Source: Candidatus Latescibacterota bacterium
GTDB lineage: Bacteria; Latescibacterota; UBA2968
Length of the DNA stretch: 64,000 nt
Assembly (NCBI GenBank): GCA_965116885.1
Contig: OZ220741.1
Span: forward strand, 3,776,001 to 3,840,000
Reading direction: 5' to 3'
The notes under the pieces were generated by a model. That model saw nothing but the letters and a program-made list of their open reading frames with translations. It searched no databases and was not told where the DNA came from. Of this stretch, positions 2-27,816 are shown piece after piece. A program made the translations under genes and the position numbers. Numbering within the stretch: position 1 is the stretch's first letter; each line of letters starts with the position of its first letter.

Positions 2-469
2 CGGCTCGCAGGGGCCGAGCAGTTGTTTCCGATGAAAGTCACGCAGGATTTTTCATACCGATCCAATACTGTCGCGGGTGAGGGATGGGTGCTGGTGGGC
101 GATGCGTTTGGTTTTATCGATCCCGTTTATTCTTCGGGTGTGTTCCTCGCGCTCAAATCGGGCGAGATGGCCGCCGATGCAATCCACGAGGCCATTAAAA
201 AGCGCGATTTCTCGGGTGAACAACTCGGCAAATGGGGGCCAGAATTTCTTCCGGGCATGGAGGCGATTCGCAAATTGGTCTATGCTTTTTATACCAAAGA
301 TTTCAGTTTTGCCAGGTTTTTAAAATCGCATCCAGAATGTATAGATGGCGTTATCAATATATTAAAAGGCAATGTCTATCGCGAGGATGTCACCCCTATT
401 TTTGAGCCTATGGGGCAAATGTGCGATCTGCCCGAGACTGTGGAACACTACGCTGAGGTATCTGCTTAA
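2..469 (+). CDS. NAD(P)/FAD-dependent oxidoreductase, flavin-dependent halogenase-like (5'-partial)
   Basis: Frame is open from the window edge. C-terminal motif GEGWVLVGDAFGFIDPVYSSGVFLA is typical of the flavin halogenase/GGR-like family. Confidence 0.75.
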   Translation, partial: RLAGAEQLFPMKVTQDFSYRSNTVAGEGWVLVGDAFGFIDPVYSSGVFLALKSGEMAADAIHEAIKKRDFSGEQLGKWGPEFLPGMEAIRKLVYAFYTKDFSFARFLKSHPECIDGVINILKGNVYREDVTPIFEPMGQMCDLPETVEHYAEVSA

Positions 470-484
470 ACGGGATTGCTGTAT

Positions 485-1786
485 ATGCGAATTGCTTATA
501 TTGCCGCTGGTGCGGCGGGCATGTATTGTGGCAGTTGTATTCACGACAATGCGCTGGCCTCTGCGCTTCAGCGCAAGGGGATAGATTTCGCGCTTATTCC
601 GACGTACACGCCTCTGCGTACCGATGAACCGGGCGCGAGTATCGATCGGGTTTTTTATGGCGGCATCAATGTTTATCTCCAGCAGAAAATGGGTATTTTT
701 CGGCACACGCCCTCTTTTGTCGATAGATTATTGAATAGCCGAATACTGCTCAATAGTCTCGCCCGTTTTAGCGGATCAACGCGCGCTGAAGACCTCGGCA
801 CGCTCACAGTTTCGGTTTTAGAAGGGGAAGAAGGCGCGCAAAAAAAAGAACTCGCAAAGCTGGTGCGCTGGTTGAAAGAGGACTTTCGACCAGACCTCGT
901 GCAATTGACCAATTCGATGTTTTTGGGCATGGCGAGAGAAATGAAACGGGAACTCGGTATTCCCGTTTTGTGTTCTCTGCAAGGCGAAGATATTTTTCTC
1001 GAAGGATTGATAGAACCCTACAAATCGGACGCGCGGCAGTGCTTACGAGATAGAGCAAAAGATGTCGATGGATTTGTAGCCACTTGTGATTATTATGCCG
1101 ATTTTATGGCAGATTATCTCGATGTGCCGCGCAATCGGATTCACGTTGCGCCTTTGGGTATCAAATTAGACGGACATGGAGAAAGCGGTGTAAAGCCGGA
1201 CCCATTGCCTTTTGCGATAGGTTATCTCGCCCGAATATGTCCCGAGAAAGGGTTGCATGCGCTGGTAGATGCGTTTCATCAACTGGCTGAGCAAGTCGGT
1301 AAGGAGAATGTAAAACTCAGCGTTGCCGGTTATCTCGGACAAAGAGACGCGCCGTATTTTCAGCACGTATGCGAACAAATCGCATCCCGGGGACTTTCCG
1401 ATGTTTTTGATTATCGCGGGGAAGTCAATCGGGAAGAAAAAATTGCATTTCTGAATAGCATCCATATCTTATCTGTGCCCACGCCTTATAAAGAACCCAA
1501 GGGGCTATCGCTGCTCGAAGCTATGGCCAATGGCGTTCCCGTTGTTCAGCCCCGGCACGGTATTTTTCCGGAATGGATCGAAAAAACGGGTGGGGGAATT
1601 CTGGTAGAGCCAGATTCTTCAGAGGCATTGGCGGCAGGGTTGCTGCGGATGATGAATGACGCAGAGGGGCGAGAGGCGATGGGGCAAAAAGGGAAAGAAG
1701 CAGTGCATCAAAATTTTAGCGACGACGATATGGCGGAAGCAACACTGTCGGTATATCGCCGGTATGTGACGGATTCAAAAACTTAA
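485..1786 (+). CDS. Glycosyltransferase family 4 (GT-B)
   Basis: IGYLARICPEKG and EPKGLSLLEAMANGVPVV (EX7E) motifs; N-terminal GMYCGSC. ATG at 485 chosen as start. Confidence 0.88.
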   Translation: MRIAYIAAGAAGMYCGSCIHDNALASALQRKGIDFALIPTYTPLRTDEPGASIDRVFYGGINVYLQQKMGIFRHTPSFVDRLLNSRILLNSLARFSGSTRAEDLGTLTVSVLEGEEGAQKKELAKLVRWLKEDFRPDLVQLTNSMFLGMAREMKRELGIPVLCSLQGEDIFLEGLIEPYKSDARQCLRDRAKDVDGFVATCDYYADFMADYLDVPRNRIHVAPLGIKLDGHGESGVKPDPLPFAIGYLARICPEKGLHALVDAFHQLAEQVGKENVKLSVAGYLGQRDAPYFQHVCEQIASRGLSDVFDYRGEVNREEKIAFLNSIHILSVPTPYKEPKGLSLLEAMANGVPVVQPRHGIFPEWIEKTGGGILVEPDSSEALAAGLLRMMNDAEGREAMGQKGKEAVHQNFSDDDMAEATLSVYRRYVTDSKT

Positions 1787-22284: not shown

Positions 22285-24316
22285 GATACTTTTCGCCTAT
22301 TACTACCAAAATTGGCAAGCCATCCCGTATTTCTATTTGGGCGTCGCGAGACACTGTTTCGGTTTCTCCGGTGCATAGATGATAGATGCGAACAGGGCTG
22401 ATGTCGAGTGAAAATTCAAGGGTGTCGAGATCGAAAATATCTTGGGCAGGTAGTACGAGAGCGAGTTGGCGATTGGTGTTGTTGAGATACAGGACACGGT
22501 TGTTTTCGCATATTTGTTCGGCGGGATCTGTAAAGGTGGTGTCGTGAACGGGACTGTTGAGGAGTGTGTTCAGACAACGCAGGGTGTGAAAGGGAGGACG
22601 GGGGTTGCAGAGGGTGTCGAGCAATCCATGTGTGACATCCATTGTGCGGTCAAAGTCGGTGAGTGGATCGACAAAGAGACGTGCGCCTGGCAGGCGGACA
22701 ATGGCAAATGTGGCTTCGGCAATTCGGCGGGCATTGGTGCTGTCGTTCTGCGCGTCTAATTCGAGGGATATGTCGATGTAGCCGATATTCGAGTATTTGC
22801 GTTCGCTCAGGGATTGGATATAAGTCCAGGGCGATTGGTTGGGCGGTACGCGGCTGAGTACGCGCTGCAGGTGCATATCGGCATTTTGAAGGGTCGCATT
22901 CAGGTTTTCGAGTTCGTCGAGTTGATAACCCATTCGGGTTCGCAGGTGTTGTTTGCCGTGTACGCGTTCGTTGGGGATGATGGGACAAATCGAGAGTTCT
23001 GCGAGTTCTGCACATCGATTGAGTGTTTCGCAAACTTCATCGGATGATAGCGAAGGATCAGATATCTGAATTTCCCAGTTCTGTATGAGATCGAGGTTGG
23101 CTTTGATGTGTTCGGGCAATGAGGCGATGCGCGGTTCGAGGAATGTGGCAATGGGCGTTATCCCTTCGGCACAGAGCATTTCGAGGCGTGTGCGCTGAAA
23201 GGGGTCGCGCAGGTCGCGCCAGGGAAAGCGCACAAATTTGGTGCCGAGTTCTATGCAGGCAAAAAGATGCTGGTCATTGCGCACTTTTTGACGTATGACA
23301 GAGGGATAGGCGATTGGGAGTTCCGCAATGGGCGTGATGGGGTGGCGAAGGGTGAGCCCAACGGGGGAAGACAGAGTGGCGGATGTGCAGGTGACGAGGC
23401 GGTCGCGGGCAGGGCGTTTTGTTTCGCCTTTTGTGCGGATGAAGTGGATGTCGGTGTGTTCGGCGCGTATGCGGAGGAGATAAAATCCCAGCTTGCCCGT
23501 GTCGTCTCGCCCCTGTTCGGGTGGCGGCGCACTGGCATAGAGATGACCGAATCCCGGGCGCGTAAAGGATGTGGAAGGGGTGATGAAATAGCGCGTTTTT
23601 CCAATTTTGTCATAAAAGGGATAGTGTACGTGTGCAGCGAAGAGGCGTTCGATTCCGTATTTTTCAATCAGTGCGAGGAGGCGGTCTCGATCTGGCGGGC
23701 TGATATTGTCGTAGTGTCCCAATCCCGGTTCATTTTTATCCCCAAGATACAAGGGCAGGTGAAAGAAGAGAAAGAGCCGCTGATTTTTATGTTTTTCAAG
23801 GTCGGATTCAAACCATTCCCACTGGTCGTCTGCTTCGGGGATTTTTGAGTTGAGGATCTGGGAATTGAGCACGATAAAATGACAATCGTCGCGGTCAAAA
23901 CTGTACCAGGAAGGTCCAAAGAGTTCGTGGAAGAATGCGAGCGATTCCGCGGTTGCCGCATGGGTGGGCATGGTGGGGTCAGCTTTGTCGCCGATATCGT
24001 GATTGCCAGCGACATAGTGGGGAGAAATATTACAGGCGCGTATCTGATCGCGCGCTTCGAACATCGCGCGTTTGAAGTCCGGTGTTCCGGGATATTCCTG
24101 GACGAGGTCGCCCATGTGGATGACAAAGTCCGCCCCTATATCTGATACCTGTTGCAGGGCAATGCCAGCACGCTGGGTTTGCACGCGGCGCGATTCAAAT
24201 TCGAGGGGGCGGTCGCCAACGTCAATCATGTAATGCGTGTCGGCGATGACCACGTATTCAAATTGAGCGGGGGGGAGGTGGGTTTTGTCGAAGATTATTC
24301 TTTTTCTGCTTTCCAT
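22256..24316 (-). CDS. Calcineurin-like metallophosphoesterase with large unknown C-terminal domain
   Basis: ADTH, MGD, GNHD, HLP and AHVH motifs in the first ~290 aa; overlaps the end of ftrC by 22 bp. Confidence 0.82.
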   Translation of the reverse strand: MESRKRIIFDKTHLPPAQFEYVVIADTHYMIDVGDRPLEFESRRVQTQRAGIALQQVSDIGADFVIHMGDLVQEYPGTPDFKRAMFEARDQIRACNISPHYVAGNHDIGDKADPTMPTHAATAESLAFFHELFGPSWYSFDRDDCHFIVLNSQILNSKIPEADDQWEWFESDLEKHKNQRLFLFFHLPLYLGDKNEPGLGHYDNISPPDRDRLLALIEKYGIERLFAAHVHYPFYDKIGKTRYFITPSTSFTRPGFGHLYASAPPPEQGRDDTGKLGFYLLRIRAEHTDIHFIRTKGETKRPARDRLVTCTSATLSSPVGLTLRHPITPIAELPIAYPSVIRQKVRNDQHLFACIELGTKFVRFPWRDLRDPFQRTRLEMLCAEGITPIATFLEPRIASLPEHIKANLDLIQNWEIQISDPSLSSDEVCETLNRCAELAELSICPIIPNERVHGKQHLRTRMGYQLDELENLNATLQNADMHLQRVLSRVPPNQSPWTYIQSLSERKYSNIGYIDISLELDAQNDSTNARRIAEATFAIVRLPGARLFVDPLTDFDRTMDVTHGLLDTLCNPRPPFHTLRCLNTLLNSPVHDTTFTDPAEQICENNRVLYLNNTNRQLALVLPAQDIFDLDTLEFSLDISPVRIYHLCTGETETVSRDAQIEIRDGLPILVVIGEKYPQMNADERR

Positions 24317-24720
24317 TCGGCGATTTTTTCATCGGCTTTGCGACGCAGTTCGCGGCCCTTGTCCGGGGTGGGGTCTTCGATGAGGCCATAGACCTGGCGG
24401 CCTTCGTGATCTTCGGGTAAGTATTCTGTAATGGGCATGCCTTCAGGGGTGACAAAGAGCAGGCAGTGACAGTATTTGAAAATTTTCATTTCGTCACAGG
24501 CACAGACCCATTCGCGGCTGCGTTCGAGTTCGGCCTTTTTGTCGGGATAAAAGTTGCAGGGGCAAAGCGGACGGCCCAGTTCGTCGATGTTTTCTGCAAG
24601 ACCGCAGATGACTGTGTCGGCGACTTCCCGGGTCGGATGCGGCGATGTCCCGGTTTTTTCCCAGTATTTTTCCGTGTATATCTGCATTCTTTTGAGGCTT
24701 TTTTCTGTGGGTTCTGACAT
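24295..24720 (-). CDS. ftrC: Ferredoxin:thioredoxin reductase catalytic (beta) subunit
   Basis: CPC...CAC...CHC cysteine triplets (LCPCNF, VCACDEM, YCHCLLF). Confidence 0.88.
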   Translation of the reverse strand: MSEPTEKSLKRMQIYTEKYWEKTGTSPHPTREVADTVICGLAENIDELGRPLCPCNFYPDKKAELERSREWVCACDEMKIFKYCHCLLFVTPEGMPITEYLPEDHEGRQVYGLIEDPTPDKGRELRRKADEKIAEWKAEKE

Positions 24721-24830
24721 GGCGATACCGATCCTTTCTTTCTAGCACATCTTAACATAAGAAGTGTTAGACAATGCATGCTTGTTCAAGCATGGAGTGA
24801 TCTCTCAACGCACGCAGAAAGATTCCACGT
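24710..24830 (-). ncRNA. Putative TnpB omegaRNA (scaffold overlapping tnpB 3' end, plus flank-derived guide)
   Basis: Hairpins CATGCTTG-AA-CAAGCATG and CTAACACTTCTTA-TGT-TAAGATGTGCTAG, then AAAGAAAGGATCGG. Boundaries are inferred. Confidence 0.55.
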
Positions 24831-26263
24831 GCTCCGTTTATATCTCGATCCATTTGTTGACCATCTTTACTCACCACCGTCTTGCGTCCTCCAAGATTTG
24901 CTATCACTTCACCTGTCCAACTCACTGTCTTGGACGTGTAGGCTTCATTGACAATCAGCACACGCTTGTTGTTCTGCCACGCTTTCCACTGGAGAAAAAT
25001 CTTAAAACGGTGGTGCGCCCAGGTCAGCATACTTCGCACAGACTTTGAACGTATCCTACGCTTCGATCTTTGTATCATATCTGATACATTGAAGGACGGC
25101 AATAAGATCAGATCAAAGTTATCGACAAGCCATCTGGCACACTGATGATGCAACTCATCAACAAGATTGCGAATGCGGCTTCGCATACGTCTTTGTGCAT
25201 GGCGCATACGCTTTTTGCGATAGGATAACTTTTCTCGTTTTGTCCTGCTGATCAAGTTGTCAAGGTGGTGACACATACGAACAATATGACCAAAGTCATT
25301 CTCACCAACCTTGCCACAATTGGTCGGGCTAAAGAAGGTCTGAAAACTCCGTATCCCTGGATCGAGTGCCACCACACGTCCTTGGGTCTCGGTTGCATTG
25401 CGATGGACTTTTTGGGGGACACACAGATAGTAGGCATCTCGTATTTTGACAAGACGACTATCAAAACATTCTTCTGGCAAAGACTCTGACAGTTTTAACA
25501 CGCCAAGTATGGTATGATAAACTCCTTTCTCGCTTATGGTTGACTTGGTGATATAGCAACTCTGTATCGGATGTTTCCTGCTTCTGAAACGCAACTTGGC
25601 GTAGCTCTCGCTATTCTTGCGTTCCTTGTTATATCTGATCACGGCTTTGCAAGACAAGCAGGCCTCCTTGACAGCATTGCGTTTGATCTGGTATGGCACA
25701 GACAAAAACCGCTCTGGAATAACACATGCCTTAATGATGTGCCACATTTTGATGTAATTCGGATAAGGAGCCGCTTCTCCTGTCAGCACTTCTACTGTCT
25801 GGTTGTAGAACCACCGTGCAGCATCCAGCCATACACGGATGATTTGACGCTGATTATTCACTGGATAAACTCTAATCTTCTTTGATTGCCTGTCTGTACC
25901 TTCGTAGTCCGTGCAGGCGACGAGAGAACGTATAGAGGATGGGCAAAATATCTTGTGTGAGTTCCGCTTTGGGGCTTGCACTTGGGTCATTGAGAACCAG
26001 AACCTCGTTCCCGTTTTGCTGTGCCATCCATTCGATGAGTTCAAAGCCAAATCTTGCAAGGCGGTCTTTGTTGGCAACCACAATCTGGAGCTTTTCTCCG
26101 CGATGTAGTCGTTCCAGTAACTTGAGGAGTCCTTTTCGCTTGTAGTTGAGTCTGCCGCTAGTGTCTCTGACAATTTCCGATCCTTTGAATTGCTCTTGCA
26201 TTGACGAAATTTGTTTTTTAAGGTCGTCTTTTTGGTTTTTGATACTAACTCGGCAGTAGCCAA
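24767..26263 (-). CDS. tnpB: RNA-guided endonuclease TnpB, IS607/pro-Fanzor type
   Basis: KKIRVYP...WLDAARWFYN; RuvC-I ALDPG; RuvC-II LLPSF with downstream NEAYTSKT; RuvC-III DRDINGARGI. Start is uncertain (TTG 26263 or ATG 25990). Confidence 0.9.
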   Translation of the reverse strand: MATAELVSKTKKTTLKNKFRQCKSNSKDRKLSETLAADSTTSEKDSSSYWNDYIAEKSSRLWLPTKTALQDLALNSSNGWHSKTGTRFWFSMTQVQAPKRNSHKIFCPSSIRSLVACTDYEGTDRQSKKIRVYPVNNQRQIIRVWLDAARWFYNQTVEVLTGEAAPYPNYIKMWHIIKACVIPERFLSVPYQIKRNAVKEACLSCKAVIRYNKERKNSESYAKLRFRSRKHPIQSCYITKSTISEKGVYHTILGVLKLSESLPEECFDSRLVKIRDAYYLCVPQKVHRNATETQGRVVALDPGIRSFQTFFSPTNCGKVGENDFGHIVRMCHHLDNLISRTKREKLSYRKKRMRHAQRRMRSRIRNLVDELHHQCARWLVDNFDLILLPSFNVSDMIQRSKRRIRSKSVRSMLTWAHHRFKIFLQWKAWQNNKRVLIVNEAYTSKTVSWTGEVIANLGGRKTVVSKDGQQMDRDINGARGIFLRALRDHSMLEQACIV

Positions 26264-26352
26264 ACAACGGTCGCGTCACTTGCTCGGCGCAAGAAGTCAT
26301 CGACAGCCTAACGGCTATACCCACCCTCCGTACGAAAAGTCTTTATGCATCC
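25872..26352 (-). pseudogene. tnpA: IS607 transposase TnpA (serine recombinase), disrupted
   Basis: YCRVS..QKDDL, LNYKRKGL, KDRLARFGFELI and FSRRLHGLR motifs. The upstream remnant GCIKTFRTEGGYSR*AVDDFL..TVV is in another frame (TAG at 26310-26308; extra T at 26262-26264). No intact HTH start. Confidence 0.82.
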
Positions 26353-26437
26353 CAACGTTGCCACTTTTTGTTACTTTGCATCACCTTCAGATTTTTCAAA
26401 TGTGTTGTGGACTTACAACATGGTTGAAAAATGGGCA

Positions 26438-27742
26438 TCATTCCCACTGCTTTCCCCATAACTTCTGTGCAATCTCCGCGACATTCAATTGATCGATGTC
26501 GTCTCCAATAACTTTTCGCAAATTCTCATACCGAGTACTCTGCATACCACCGCGCGACGACTTGACATATTGAGTCTCATTGAGTGCTCCACAGAAGTAG
26601 AGTTGCCCAGGTGCATTGTCCCAGCCGAGTAACGCCTTTGTGTCTTTGAGACTTTCGATGATTTTGTTGTCGTACTCATCGGTATCTCGCCCTTCCATCA
26701 ACGTCTTTTTTAGATTTACCCCGTCATATTTAATATCAAAAATACTATCAATCTCCAAAATTGCCCGTACGGCCTTGTCTTTGTATAACCCCAAAAACCG
26801 ATGCCTCTTGCTATAACGACGATCTGATGGACAAAAGTAAACGCCGTATTTTTTGTTTATCTCAAGGCTGTTACCACAAGGTACCATTCTCATAAGATAT
26901 TTCGATGGATCGAAGGATTGCGCTTGGACAGCGAATTGCCTGTTGAGATAATCCATAGATTTTCGAAGTTCTGCTCTCGCATCGCCCGGGGGGATGCTGC
27001 ATTCAAAACCGCAGTAGTAATCGTAACCGATGTCGGACAGTGATTTGAGGGGGGGACCAAAATCCGTGTGACCATAGCCCGGCAAAATGCGATTGCTGTC
27101 GGCCAGATGTACATTGGCGATGTGTTTATCCCCTGCGCGGATGGCGTCGGCGAGGTCGGCTTCCTCGATGCTCATGTGGAAGAGATCAGCCATGGTGGCG
27201 ATAGATGGGCTGCCCACTGCTTCGCAGATTTCAACGCCCTGAGCAACTGTGCAGGGCCACCACTGTTCGTAGCGGTTCAGGGGTTCGATGATCAGAAGAC
27301 TGTCGCACGCTTCGGCATGCGGTGCGATGTCTCGTTTGAGAATTTCGATGAGGAGATCTTTTTCAAGTGCAGATGTGCTGTACAGGGGAGAAAGATCGGG
27401 AATGCGTTGCCCACCGCCCATTTTGATGCCGATGAGCGGTGGGAATATCACGCCTACACCGCCGACTTCAGCACACAGGGTGAGGGCGTCGTTAATGGAT
27501 TTTACGGCTGTGCGGCGTTCTTCGGGACGTGCGTCGAGCAGGCGATTGCCGCCCCGGGCAGAGCAAATATTGGGCACGATACCCGTCGCGTCTGACGCTG
27601 CTTTGATCTCATCTGCAAAATCTGCGGTGCTGCTATTGGTGATTTCTATGCCGGAAAATCCGAGTTCTTTGAGGGTCTGGAATTTCTCCATCAGGGTGTT
27701 GCCAGGGGCCATGGGTTCGCGAAGAGAATATTTGATGGTCAT
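26438..27742 (-). CDS. Sugar phosphate isomerase/epimerase (xylose-isomerase-like TIM barrel) fused to a foreign C-terminal domain
   Basis: IEPLNRYE, ADLFHM, HLADSNR..PGYGH and FEC motifs, followed in frame by ~160 unrelated, AT-richer codons. Confidence 0.82.
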   Translation of the reverse strand: MTIKYSLREPMAPGNTLMEKFQTLKELGFSGIEITNSSTADFADEIKAASDATGIVPNICSARGGNRLLDARPEERRTAVKSINDALTLCAEVGGVGVIFPPLIGIKMGGGQRIPDLSPLYSTSALEKDLLIEILKRDIAPHAEACDSLLIIEPLNRYEQWWPCTVAQGVEICEAVGSPSIATMADLFHMSIEEADLADAIRAGDKHIANVHLADSNRILPGYGHTDFGPPLKSLSDIGYDYYCGFECSIPPGDARAELRKSMDYLNRQFAVQAQSFDPSKYLMRMVPCGNSLEINKKYGVYFCPSDRRYSKRHRFLGLYKDKAVRAILEIDSIFDIKYDGVNLKKTLMEGRDTDEYDNKIIESLKDTKALLGWDNAPGQLYFCGALNETQYVKSSRGGMQSTRYENLRKVIGDDIDQLNVAEIAQKLWGKQWE

Positions 27743-27788
27743 AATCAGTTCCGATATGGATTGGGAATTTATGAAAACGCCTACAGAC

Positions 27789-27816
27789 AATATACCGCCT
27801 TATGGATAAAAGGCAA
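27789..27816 (-). promoter_or_regulatory. Sigma70-type promoter
   Basis: TTGCCT-N16-TATATT upstream of 27742. Confidence 0.4.

Follow-up and report, generated by a model that had tools for sequence, protein, structure and literature searches.

The TnpB locus and its active site

A 5'-truncated relic of an IS607-family element (24728..26362) encoding an unusual TnpB protein was found in a 64,000-nucleotide stretch of DNA (hereafter the window, to whose first letter all coordinates refer) from contig OZ220741.1 of a Candidatus Latescibacterota bacterium (assembly GCA_965116885.1), whose genome is a single 5.56-Mb contig. All window features described here lie on the minus strand. The TnpB frame (24767..26263) comprises 498 codons and a stop, with a TTG start, and belongs to the lineage with a DPG motif and an alternative catalytic Glu, without zinc-finger cysteines. 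It overlaps a remnant of the transposase gene tnpA, and a second copy of the element, locus L002, is present in the same genome.

The active-site motifs, positioned by script, are a RuvC-I Asp, D301 in ALDPG (aa 299-303; 25361..25363), a proline at the canonical RuvC-II Glu position, Pro389 in LLPSF (aa 387-391; 25097..25099), an alternative RuvC-II Glu 51 codons past P389, E440 in NEAYTSKT (aa 439-446; 24944..24946), and a RuvC-III Asp, D474 in DRDING (aa 472-477; 24842..24844). The original prediction, made from the DNA letters, had described this rearranged D/P/E/D site, and all of its coordinates proved exact. Both CxxC positions of the zinc finger are lost, a point that the original prediction had not mentioned, the region reading TSKT-VSWT-GEV...VV-SKDG-QQMDRD. 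In printed alignments, D301, P389, E440 and D474 fall residue for residue on D324, G416, E467 and D501 of L79, the mimivirus Fanzor2 ApmFz2. The ApmFz2 structure paper gives D324/E467/D501 as the catalytic triad and notes the 50-residue shift of the Glu (PMC11832414), and Jiang et al. treat the substitutions D324A and E467A as abolishing catalysis (PMC10530073). The catalytic triad of the window TnpB is thus predicted to be D301/E440/D474. The motifs are evidently not there by chance, judging from the Pfam and NCBIfam matches and from their conservation among relatives.

Relationship to Fanzor2

In a PDB search with the single window TnpB sequence, the best match was 9b0l ('TnpB-like protein L79', ApmFz2; E=1.7e-21), while canonical TnpB and Cas12f chains all had E-values of at least 0.014. 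A profile of 30 relatives widened the gap, with 9b0l at 6.4e-37, followed by an AI-designed TnpB at 5.6e-10 and ISDra2 TnpB (8h1j) at 4e-5, which places the window TnpB, by sequence comparison, far closer to Fanzor2 than to ISDra2 TnpB. An AlphaFold2 (AF2) model built from the 30-sequence alignment (pLDDT 73.4, pTM 0.67) gave a concordant picture. Foldseek ranked 9b0l first (1.5e-20) and ISDra2 TnpB second, and VIA-align superposed the model on 9b0l with Z 25.2 over 416 residues (root-mean-square deviation 4.4). The WED-REC-RuvC fold with its acidic triad is shared, the model matching 9b0l, 8h1j and 8exa at Z 23-25 in VIA-align. Domain searches of the window TnpB returned Cas12f1-like_TNB (Pfam, 4.5e-13, above the cut-off) and HTH_OrfB_IS605.

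Three points speak against this assignment. The Pfam OrfB_IS605 match falls under its cut-off, the NCBIfam model guided_TnpB (NF040570) scores 93.9 bits against a curated cut-off of 100, and the geometry of the catalytic pocket is predicted from homology. The guided_TnpB match runs end to end, over model positions 2-386 of 389, so its sub-threshold score reflects divergence and not partial similarity. On balance, the window protein is very probably a TnpB of the DPG / alternative-Glu lineage (called pro-Fanzors by Yoon et al. and TnpB2 by Jiang et al.), carried by a truncated and immobile IS607 copy. Placement in this lineage, and not among canonical IS605/IS1341 proteins, had been predicted at the outset, and agrees with the PDB searches, the fold and the phylogeny that had been proposed as a check.

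A truncated copy of an IS607-family element

The tnpA remnant (25872..26324) is a 150-aa open reading frame (ORF) that retains the serine-recombinase catalytic domain only (Pfam Resolvase, 1.7e-16). It matches positions 50-186 of 187 of the NCBIfam model transpos_IS607 (NF033518), the MerR-type helix-turn-helix (HTH) being missing, and the stretch that codes for its first residues corresponds to the TnpB frame of L002. What is left of the HTH-linker part of tnpA (26260..26362) carries a TAT>TAG stop at 26310-26308 and, relative to L002, an extra G at 26260/26261. The L002 copy, whose TnpB is 90% identical to that of the window at the protein level, has a full tnpA, a 210-aa ORF at L002:1005-1637 (191 aa from the first ATG) with a MerR-type HTH. 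The recombinase remnant in the window and the full tnpA of L002 bear out the predicted association with IS607.

In a blastn comparison, the two loci are 90.4% identical over 1638 columns, the homology being confined to window positions 24728-26362, which correspond to L002 positions 1130-2764. By reading of its ends, the intact L002 element extends over about L002:1005-2764, roughly 1760 bp. Relative to it, the window copy has lost ~125 bp, comprising the left end and ~23 codons of tnpA. The extra G shifts the window tnpA and places the ATG of the L002 TnpB frame (MLSMTSC...) in the tnpA frame; ahead of M92, the TnpB frame of the window offers neither ATG nor GTG, only TTG codons. Of the hallmarks of an IS607 element, the full HTH recombinase and the pair of element ends are lacking in the window copy, and the HTH is present in L002. 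Because its left end is lost, the window copy cannot transpose; it is a 5'-truncated, immobile member of the IS607 family, an ordinary decaying copy. Its earlier description as intact and probably active founders on the loss of the left end and the first part of tnpA, on the stop and 1-bp insertion in tnpA and on the out-of-frame ATG; 'intact' applies only to the stop-to-stop frame of the window TnpB.

The serious alternative to a working window TnpB, which we rate just short of an even chance, is that the protein is no longer functional, the copy being a recently disabled relic whose frame has yet to collect a stop. The left end and probably the promoter are gone, tnpA is broken, the usual TnpB-frame ATG is out of frame with only TTG codons before M92, and the element's left flank is missing from the whole genome. 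The window TnpB moreover deviates at 10 of 110 highly conserved columns, seven of these deviations being shared with the L002-type sequence (cluster representative P0001). The other three, S88F in the SWF motif, P239T and A242T, are private to the window, against none in the L002-type sequence; they count against the window protein and hint at relaxed constraint in this copy. Set against a relic are the 498 codons without a stop, the intact triad and both intact RNA hairpins (below), and an upstream gene on the same strand, from which read-through transcription is possible. The ratio of nonsynonymous to synonymous substitution rates (dN/dS) between the window and L002 also argues against it, at 0.168 (dS 0.316) over 367 non-overlapping codons, though most of the divergence may predate the truncation; in the overlap, read in the TnpB frame, the ratio is 0.29. 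Such values show past purifying selection and not necessarily present function. Taking together the private changes, the damage to tnpA and the loss of both the start and the left end, we give production of full-length TnpB from the window copy roughly even odds.

A probable N-terminal domain encoded within tnpA

The TnpB frame of the window and its relatives extends far into tnpA. Upstream of the sequence KKIRVYP it is open for 131 codons in the window and 153 in L002. Of the 27 IMG/VR loci with an anchor match, 25 have an open stretch of 71-184 codons, the two exceptions being L012, which is cut at a contig edge, and L025, where the anchor matched in the wrong place. In the window, this N-terminal extension (aa 45-127, YWNDY...WLPT...FWFS...; 25883..26131) lies in the +1 frame within the coding region of the tnpA catalytic domain. 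The same nucleotides can thus be read in two ways, TnpA ..IVVA.. as TnpB ..LWLP.., and TnpA ..VLVL.. as ..FWFS...

Stop codons in the alternative frames were counted in 16 of the 21 tnpA genes found among 46 loci (L025, of 151 aa, L018-L020, near-copies of L017, and L045, with an odd N-terminus, were dropped). As a control, the tnpA genes of eight canonical IS607 elements, carried on plasmids from as many genera (GC 0.26-0.61), were taken from 11 control loci, of which L210 was unannotated, L218 had no motif match and L220, a solo Nostoc tnpA, was left out. Over the catalytic domain of the 16 clade genes (2312 codons), the +1 (TnpB) frame contains five stops and the +2 frame 153, whereas over their HTH part (889 codons) the respective numbers are 45 and 55, and over the catalytic domain of the canonical genes (1177 codons) they are 92 and 124. 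Codon identity at identical residues is likewise higher in the overlap than in the HTH part (0.506 vs 0.344), and conservation at the protein level is 0.52 vs 0.42.

The extension also has a possible structural counterpart. VIA-align pairs model residues 46..491 with 53..518 of 9b0l, while the other TnpB and Cas12 matches begin at model residues 110-125, and the full-length profile alignment begins at L79 residue 75, with SWFS placed on SWYE. The giant-virus Fanzor2-like ORFs L046, L048 and L052 carry W-I-P..(12-14 aa)..S-W-F ahead of the WED domain, at loci where tnpA is divergent (L046) or absent (L048, L052). The extension is therefore proposed to correspond to the Fanzor2 N-terminal domain (NTD; RuvC-R and thumb), which to date has been observed in the structure of Fanzor2 alone, although the homology evidence from sequence by itself is weak. 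Three results tell against this homology. In a PDB search at E<=10, a profile of the extension by itself (25 sequences) misses 9b0l, its sole matches being 4F2hc chains at E ~2 through a chance 'SWFST'. An hhalign comparison with three giant-virus NTDs gives P=6.7e-4 and 27% probability over 27 columns only. Finally, the AF2 model of the extension is patchy, with pLDDT <50 for residues 1-46, 67-88 and 115-121.

Alternatively, the long frame could be an artefact, the true TnpB starting near the end of tnpA (at M92 or later, ~400 aa) and the upstream conservation merely mirroring that of TnpA. In its favour, NCBI records of relatives include 382-420 aa forms beside 500-532 aa forms within the same 90% clusters (P0101, P0119, P0087, P0114, P0103), Halothece sp. 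PCC 7418 having both a 532-aa and a 395-aa record, and current NCBI annotation is mostly short. In addition, the supplement of Yoon et al. describes pro-Fanzors as shorter than Fanzor2s (PMC10711439), and both the failure of the extension profile to recover a Fanzor2 chain and the low pLDDT in parts of the extension would be expected. Such a short TnpB is nevertheless unlikely in view of the near-absence of +1 stops in the clade (5/2312 codons, against 92/1177 in canonical genes and 45/889 in the clade's own HTH part) and the raised codon identity in the overlap. Three further observations also oppose it: in most loci, tblastn matches with 40-55% identity extend over residues 1-498 of the query, no structure other than 9b0l aligns with the model ahead of residue ~121, and giant-virus homologues keep W[IL]P...SWF though their tnpA is divergent or absent.

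We favour, with somewhat better than even confidence, the dual-coding interpretation that, throughout the pro-Fanzor lineage, the N-terminal ~125-150 residues of TnpB lie in the +1 frame over tnpA catalytic codons and form a domain shared with Fanzor2. The conserved frame is then ~500 aa and not ~400, and the label 'compact' given to this protein at first no longer suits it. A literature search on the N-termini and overlapping frames of IS607, pro-Fanzor and Fanzor2 found no description of this tnpA/TnpB overlap; one paper states no more than that IS607 ORFs can 'partially overlap' (PMC9956272).

Single ORFs with both Resolvase and TnpB Pfam domains were observed in four of the 120 best relatives (P0004, P0054, P0042 and P0071), with a MerR-type HTH in addition in P0004 and P0054. 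All four run from the tnpA frame into the TnpB frame, with a switch point that differs in each, which fits scattered indels better than one programmed +1 frameshift site; they may be assembly errors or frameshifted fusion products.

Element ends and insertion site

The right end of the window element terminates in AAAGGATCGG (24728..24737), with an ATCGG end that is common to the family. Among 35 loci examined, [AT]TCGG occurs within 120 nt past the tnpB stop in 31, one of these (L164) being probably a chance match. Copies at different sites diverge in their flanks directly after [AT]TCGG, and the loose ends of contigs at 24728 agree with this boundary. On the other side, complete copies are preceded by GG, often as part of GAGG or GGAGG, and many of the right flanks examined (L002, L013-L036, L126-L205) reach an ATG within 5-25 nt. 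The family thus tends to insert in a Shine-Dalgarno-like sequence shortly before a start codon. The right end of several lineages itself finishes in AAAGGATCGG, a sequence that could replace the displaced ribosome-binding site.

At the window locus, the right end lies 7 nt upstream of the ATG of a host gene encoding a ferredoxin-thioredoxin reductase beta-like protein (24295..24720; Pfam FeThRed_B, 6.4e-19). The flank directly 3' of the right end, TATCGCC ATG TCAGAACCCA (24708..24727), would supply the guide part of the right-end element RNA (reRNA) in a TnpB homing model, going by the reRNA architecture of IS607 elements (PMC10711439). Element-free contigs from runs labelled sponge metagenome or metatranscriptome read, on the gene strand, ...CTGGAGG/TATACGCCATG (the slash marking the insertion point), that is, GGAGG/TATA at the empty site, while other contigs connect the right end of the element with the L002 flank or with a third site. 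Searches of the window and of the whole genome did not recover the left flank of the empty site, which means that the left side has been deleted.

The immobility of the copy, the open TnpB frame and the position 7 nt upstream of a host start codon, where the guide would cover the start region, might also be taken as signs of a domesticated TnpB acting like TldR, as an RNA-guided regulator of the adjacent ferredoxin-thioredoxin reductase gene and not as a transposon nuclease. Such a role is very improbable: D301, E440 and D474 are all kept, whereas TldRs are reported to be nuclease-dead, a position before a start codon is the family's usual insertion preference, and the same element type occupies other sites in related samples.

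Upstream of the element, a xylose-isomerase-like TIM-barrel gene (26438-27790) encodes 450 aa, while the protein is ~276-290 aa in congeners and matches stop at about residue 286 in 17 of them. The 165 extra residues (esp. 26438-26940) have a lower GC content and no Pfam match; one congener has their counterpart in an independent ORF further downstream (61% identity), and another in a distant ORF. From these comparisons, the gene looks like a deletion-generated fusion beside the truncated element, which fits a local deletion. The flanking ferredoxin-thioredoxin reductase beta-like protein also shows a weak match (7e-10, far below the cut-off) to NCBIfam FtrB_double_U, a double-selenoprotein family; the corresponding residues seem to be Cys, and no TGA codon was seen in frame.

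Predicted guide RNA

A scaffold for the guide RNA (omega RNA or reRNA) is predicted to overlap the 3' end of tnpB (24728..24940), its extent being set by analogy with IS607 and Fanzor2 reRNAs (PMC10711439, PMC11832414) and by conserved hairpins. The larger of these, of 10 bp, is GCACGUGGAA-UCU-UUCUGCGUGC (24810..24832), which lies in the NGARGIFLRA codons, is present in the minimum free energy fold and shows covariation across 26 sequences. There, 90.5% of cells are paired, compared with 78% in shuffles and 42-63% with the partners slid, and 44 cells are changed on both sides compared with 17 in shuffles, a value reached in 0 of 500 shuffles; the stem was chosen by eye from the same 26 sequences, and the covariation count leans towards structure. 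The smaller hairpin, of 3 bp, is GAG-AGAUCA-CUC (24795..24806), for which RNAalifold finds 13 sequences changed on both sides at the third pair; on a plain MAFFT alignment of the 26 3' ends, RNAalifold recovered only 3 pairs. Two results are unfavourable to a structured RNA here: an Rfam scan of 24300-26600 at E<=1 gave no match, and the 210 nt before the right end are not unusually stable (z = -1.09).

Host, distribution and phylogeny

The host RpoB is 94-98% identical to nine records of Candidatus Latescibacterota or 'uncultured Latescibacteria' (eight complete chromosomes of metagenome-assembled genomes (MAGs) and one large contig) and 89-91% identical to four further records. By this comparison the host is a member of Candidatus Latescibacterota and not a cyanobacterium, in keeping with the non-cyanobacterial host first proposed. 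The further suggestion of a possibly animal-associated host fits the occurrence of window-locus pieces with zero differences in a run labelled sponge metagenome. In three libraries recorded as sponge metatranscriptomes, contigs cover the flanking gene, differing at 1-5 positions over 407-425 nt, and also relatives of the element that are 90-99% identical. These contigs fit transcription in situ; as evidence for it they are weakened by possible DNA carry-over and by giving neither ends nor strand, and they are not proof.

Relatives of the window TnpB are numerous. A protein search returned 3359 relatives at E<=1e-5, the best 120 of which are 47-91% identical, with xxDPG in 118/120, FD.I..P.F in 109/120 and E.YTSKT in 108/120 (in the latter two counts the remaining relatives were missed by the regular expressions). 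In all 108 relatives with a matched E.YTSKT motif, CxxC is missing from the first zinc-finger position. When species-representative genomes were scanned with an alignment, at least 558 loci (of 607 candidate stretches) were confirmed; such a scan was needed, as a single-protein scan of genome contigs gave one partial locus. The 80 loci retained are distributed over many cyanobacteria and over MAGs of Dehalococcoidia, Caldilineaceae, Latescibacterota and Poribacteria, and a single genome often contains several copies. Within the Latescibacterota set, a match at E<=1e-50 was present in 5 of 168 genomes including the source, all five belonging to the window's genus. Multi-copy genomes include one Dehalococcoidia MAG with at least four near-identical copies (L126-L129), a Caldilineaceae MAG with five and Anabaenopsis elenkinii with five. 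Near-identical copies of this kind point to recent transposition bursts of the zinc-finger-less family.

A tree was built by a 'quick' method, with SH-aLRT as the only support measure, from 49 chosen rows, namely the window TnpB, 44 ingroup loci (of ~125 TnpB relatives) and, as outgroup, four canonical TnpBs of the same genome. The canonical TnpBs split from all DPG / alternative-Glu and Fanzor2-like rows with 100% support. Two giant-virus Fanzor2-like proteins branch next, and then zinc-finger-retaining phage and bacterial forms, as two groups in an unresolved fork. A clade of 37 rows (97%) contains 34 zinc-finger-less rows and three divergent rows, two of these without DPG. In it, the window TnpB and L002 fall in a Latescibacterota group of seven rows (97%), which adjoins Caldilineaceae and then a group of Dehalococcoidia with a single row from a viral contig; the rows from cyanobacteria make up a clade of their own (99%). 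A weakness of the tree is that the long Fanzor2-like and outgroup branches meet (as a tool warning indicated), which makes the position of Fanzor2 not secure. Whichever placement is taken for Fanzor2, the window TnpB is not in the group nearest to it. It belongs to a large zinc-finger-less subclade spanning Cyanobacteriota, Chloroflexota, Latescibacterota and Poribacteria. Since the finger is retained in Fanzor2, the subclade represents a side branch rather than an ancestor. The idea of a Fanzor-ancestral clade is accordingly too strong: in this tree, the window TnpB sits in a derived, zinc-finger-less clade, outside which lie the zinc-finger-retaining forms and the giant-virus Fanzor2-like branch.

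The notion that the window TnpB is of the canonical IS605/IS1341 type with Fanzor-like motifs by chance, for which one might cite the eight canonical TnpB genes with open frames of 377-379 aa in the same genome, can be dismissed, since those copies are only 22-27% identical to it and split from it with 100% SH-aLRT, its linked transposase is a serine recombinase and not a Y1 enzyme, and the Fanzor2 chain beats all canonical chains by more than 25 orders of magnitude in E-value in the PDB profile search. The eight canonical TnpBs (L003-L010) have CxxC zinc fingers where read; two unrelated TnpB lineages thus coexist in this genome.

Proposed mechanism and significance

In intact members of the family, the serine recombinase TnpA would insert a double-stranded element at GG, here in GGAGG upstream of start codons. 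RNA running from the tnpB 3' end through the ...ATCGG right end into the flank would then guide TnpB to cut element-free copies of the site, recognized by a GG-type transposon-adjacent motif (TAM) together with the flank sequence, and cutting of these element-free sites would favour retention of the element. The nuclease activity, the guide and TAM and the homing role of this TnpB family are inferred from the family, whereas the sequence features, relationships, truncation, element ends, empty site and frame conservation are direct observations.

The value of the locus lies at the level of its clade, as a zinc-finger-less pro-Fanzor branch beyond cyanobacteria with a probable overprinted N-terminal domain shared with Fanzor2. 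In the published picture, Fanzor-like bacterial TnpBs are exclusively cyanobacterial, a result of a pattern search requiring an intact zinc finger (PMC10711439). The zinc-finger-less relatives, numbering at least 558 loci in at least four phyla, represent a wider pool of possible donors to eukaryotes and their viruses. If the dual-coding interpretation is true, the N-terminal domain existed before the transfer to eukaryotic viruses, database entries of '385-420 aa' for pro-Fanzors are annotated too short, and a large, mobile subclade, with members in sponge-labelled samples, can do without the zinc finger. It would also represent a long (~390 nt) overlap in a bacterial transposon with both frames encoding folded protein. 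If the NTD is real and lies within tnpA, constructs made from short annotated genes would miss the part that in Fanzor2 contacts RuvC, the RNA pseudoknot and the target DNA, a risk relevant to the mining of such enzymes as compact genome editors.

Comparison with known systems

The closest described group is that of the pro-Fanzors or TnpB2 proteins (Yoon et al. 2023, PMC10711439; Jiang et al. 2023, PMC10530073), with which the window TnpB shares the DPG motif, the Pro at the canonical Glu site, a Glu six residues ahead of the zinc-finger position, an IS607 serine-recombinase partner, a GG-type target site and Fanzor2 as the closest solved relative. It differs in having no CxxC...CxxC and in a conserved frame of ~500 aa with an N-terminal domain, whereas the supplement of PMC10711439 calls pro-Fanzors shorter than Fanzor2. 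It also lacks the cyanobacterial host that belongs to the pro-Fanzor definition in that paper. The regular expression given for pro-Fanzors by Yoon et al. is DPGx(120,160)ExxxxxxCxxCx(12,18)CxxCx(4,8)D (PMC10711439). Because the CxxC pairs are absent in the window clade, this expression cannot match its proteins. Four accessions of zinc-finger-less cyanobacterial members and the string TSKTVSW do not appear in the available supplement text of PMC10711439, a weak negative since long cells of that supplement are cut. Zinc-finger-less TnpB branches as such are known from Altae-Tran et al. 2023 (PMC10691335).

Fanzor2 (ApmFz2, PDB 9B0L, PMC11832414) is the best match in sequence and fold, has identical catalytic triad positions and an identical 51-residue Glu shift in the alignment, and bears an N-terminal extension of similar length sharing W[IL]P...SW[FY]. 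Its identity to the window TnpB in fold alignments is 20-21%. It retains the zinc finger, bears an N-terminal nuclear localization signal and is viral or eukaryotic, whereas the window gene lies on a bacterial chromosome, and the only giant-virus contig here with tnpA shows no overlap of tnpA with the Fanzor2-like gene. For ApmFNuc, ~200 nt of conserved 3' non-coding sequence is reported in PMC10530073, whereas the right end of the window clade lies 14-60 nt past the stop (39 nt in the window).

Canonical IS607 TnpBs (ISXfa1, H. pylori IS607, ISCfe1 and ISChh1) resemble the window clade in that tnpA and tnpB share a strand, the serine recombinase bears a MerR-type HTH, the target is GG and the reRNA extends from the tnpB 3' end across the right end. 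They differ in their annotated tnpA/tnpB overlap, 4-38 nt in nine control loci against roughly 390 nt in the window clade, and in a tnpA +1 frame full of stops. ISDra2 TnpB (8H1J, 8EXA), of the canonical IS200/IS605 type, shares the WED-REC-RuvC fold (VIA-align Z 24.6 and 23.4 over model residues 122-492). Its RuvC-II Glu, however, is at the canonical position, it carries a D-hydrophobic-G motif and a zinc finger, it is partnered by a Y1 transposase, and it has no N-terminal domain.

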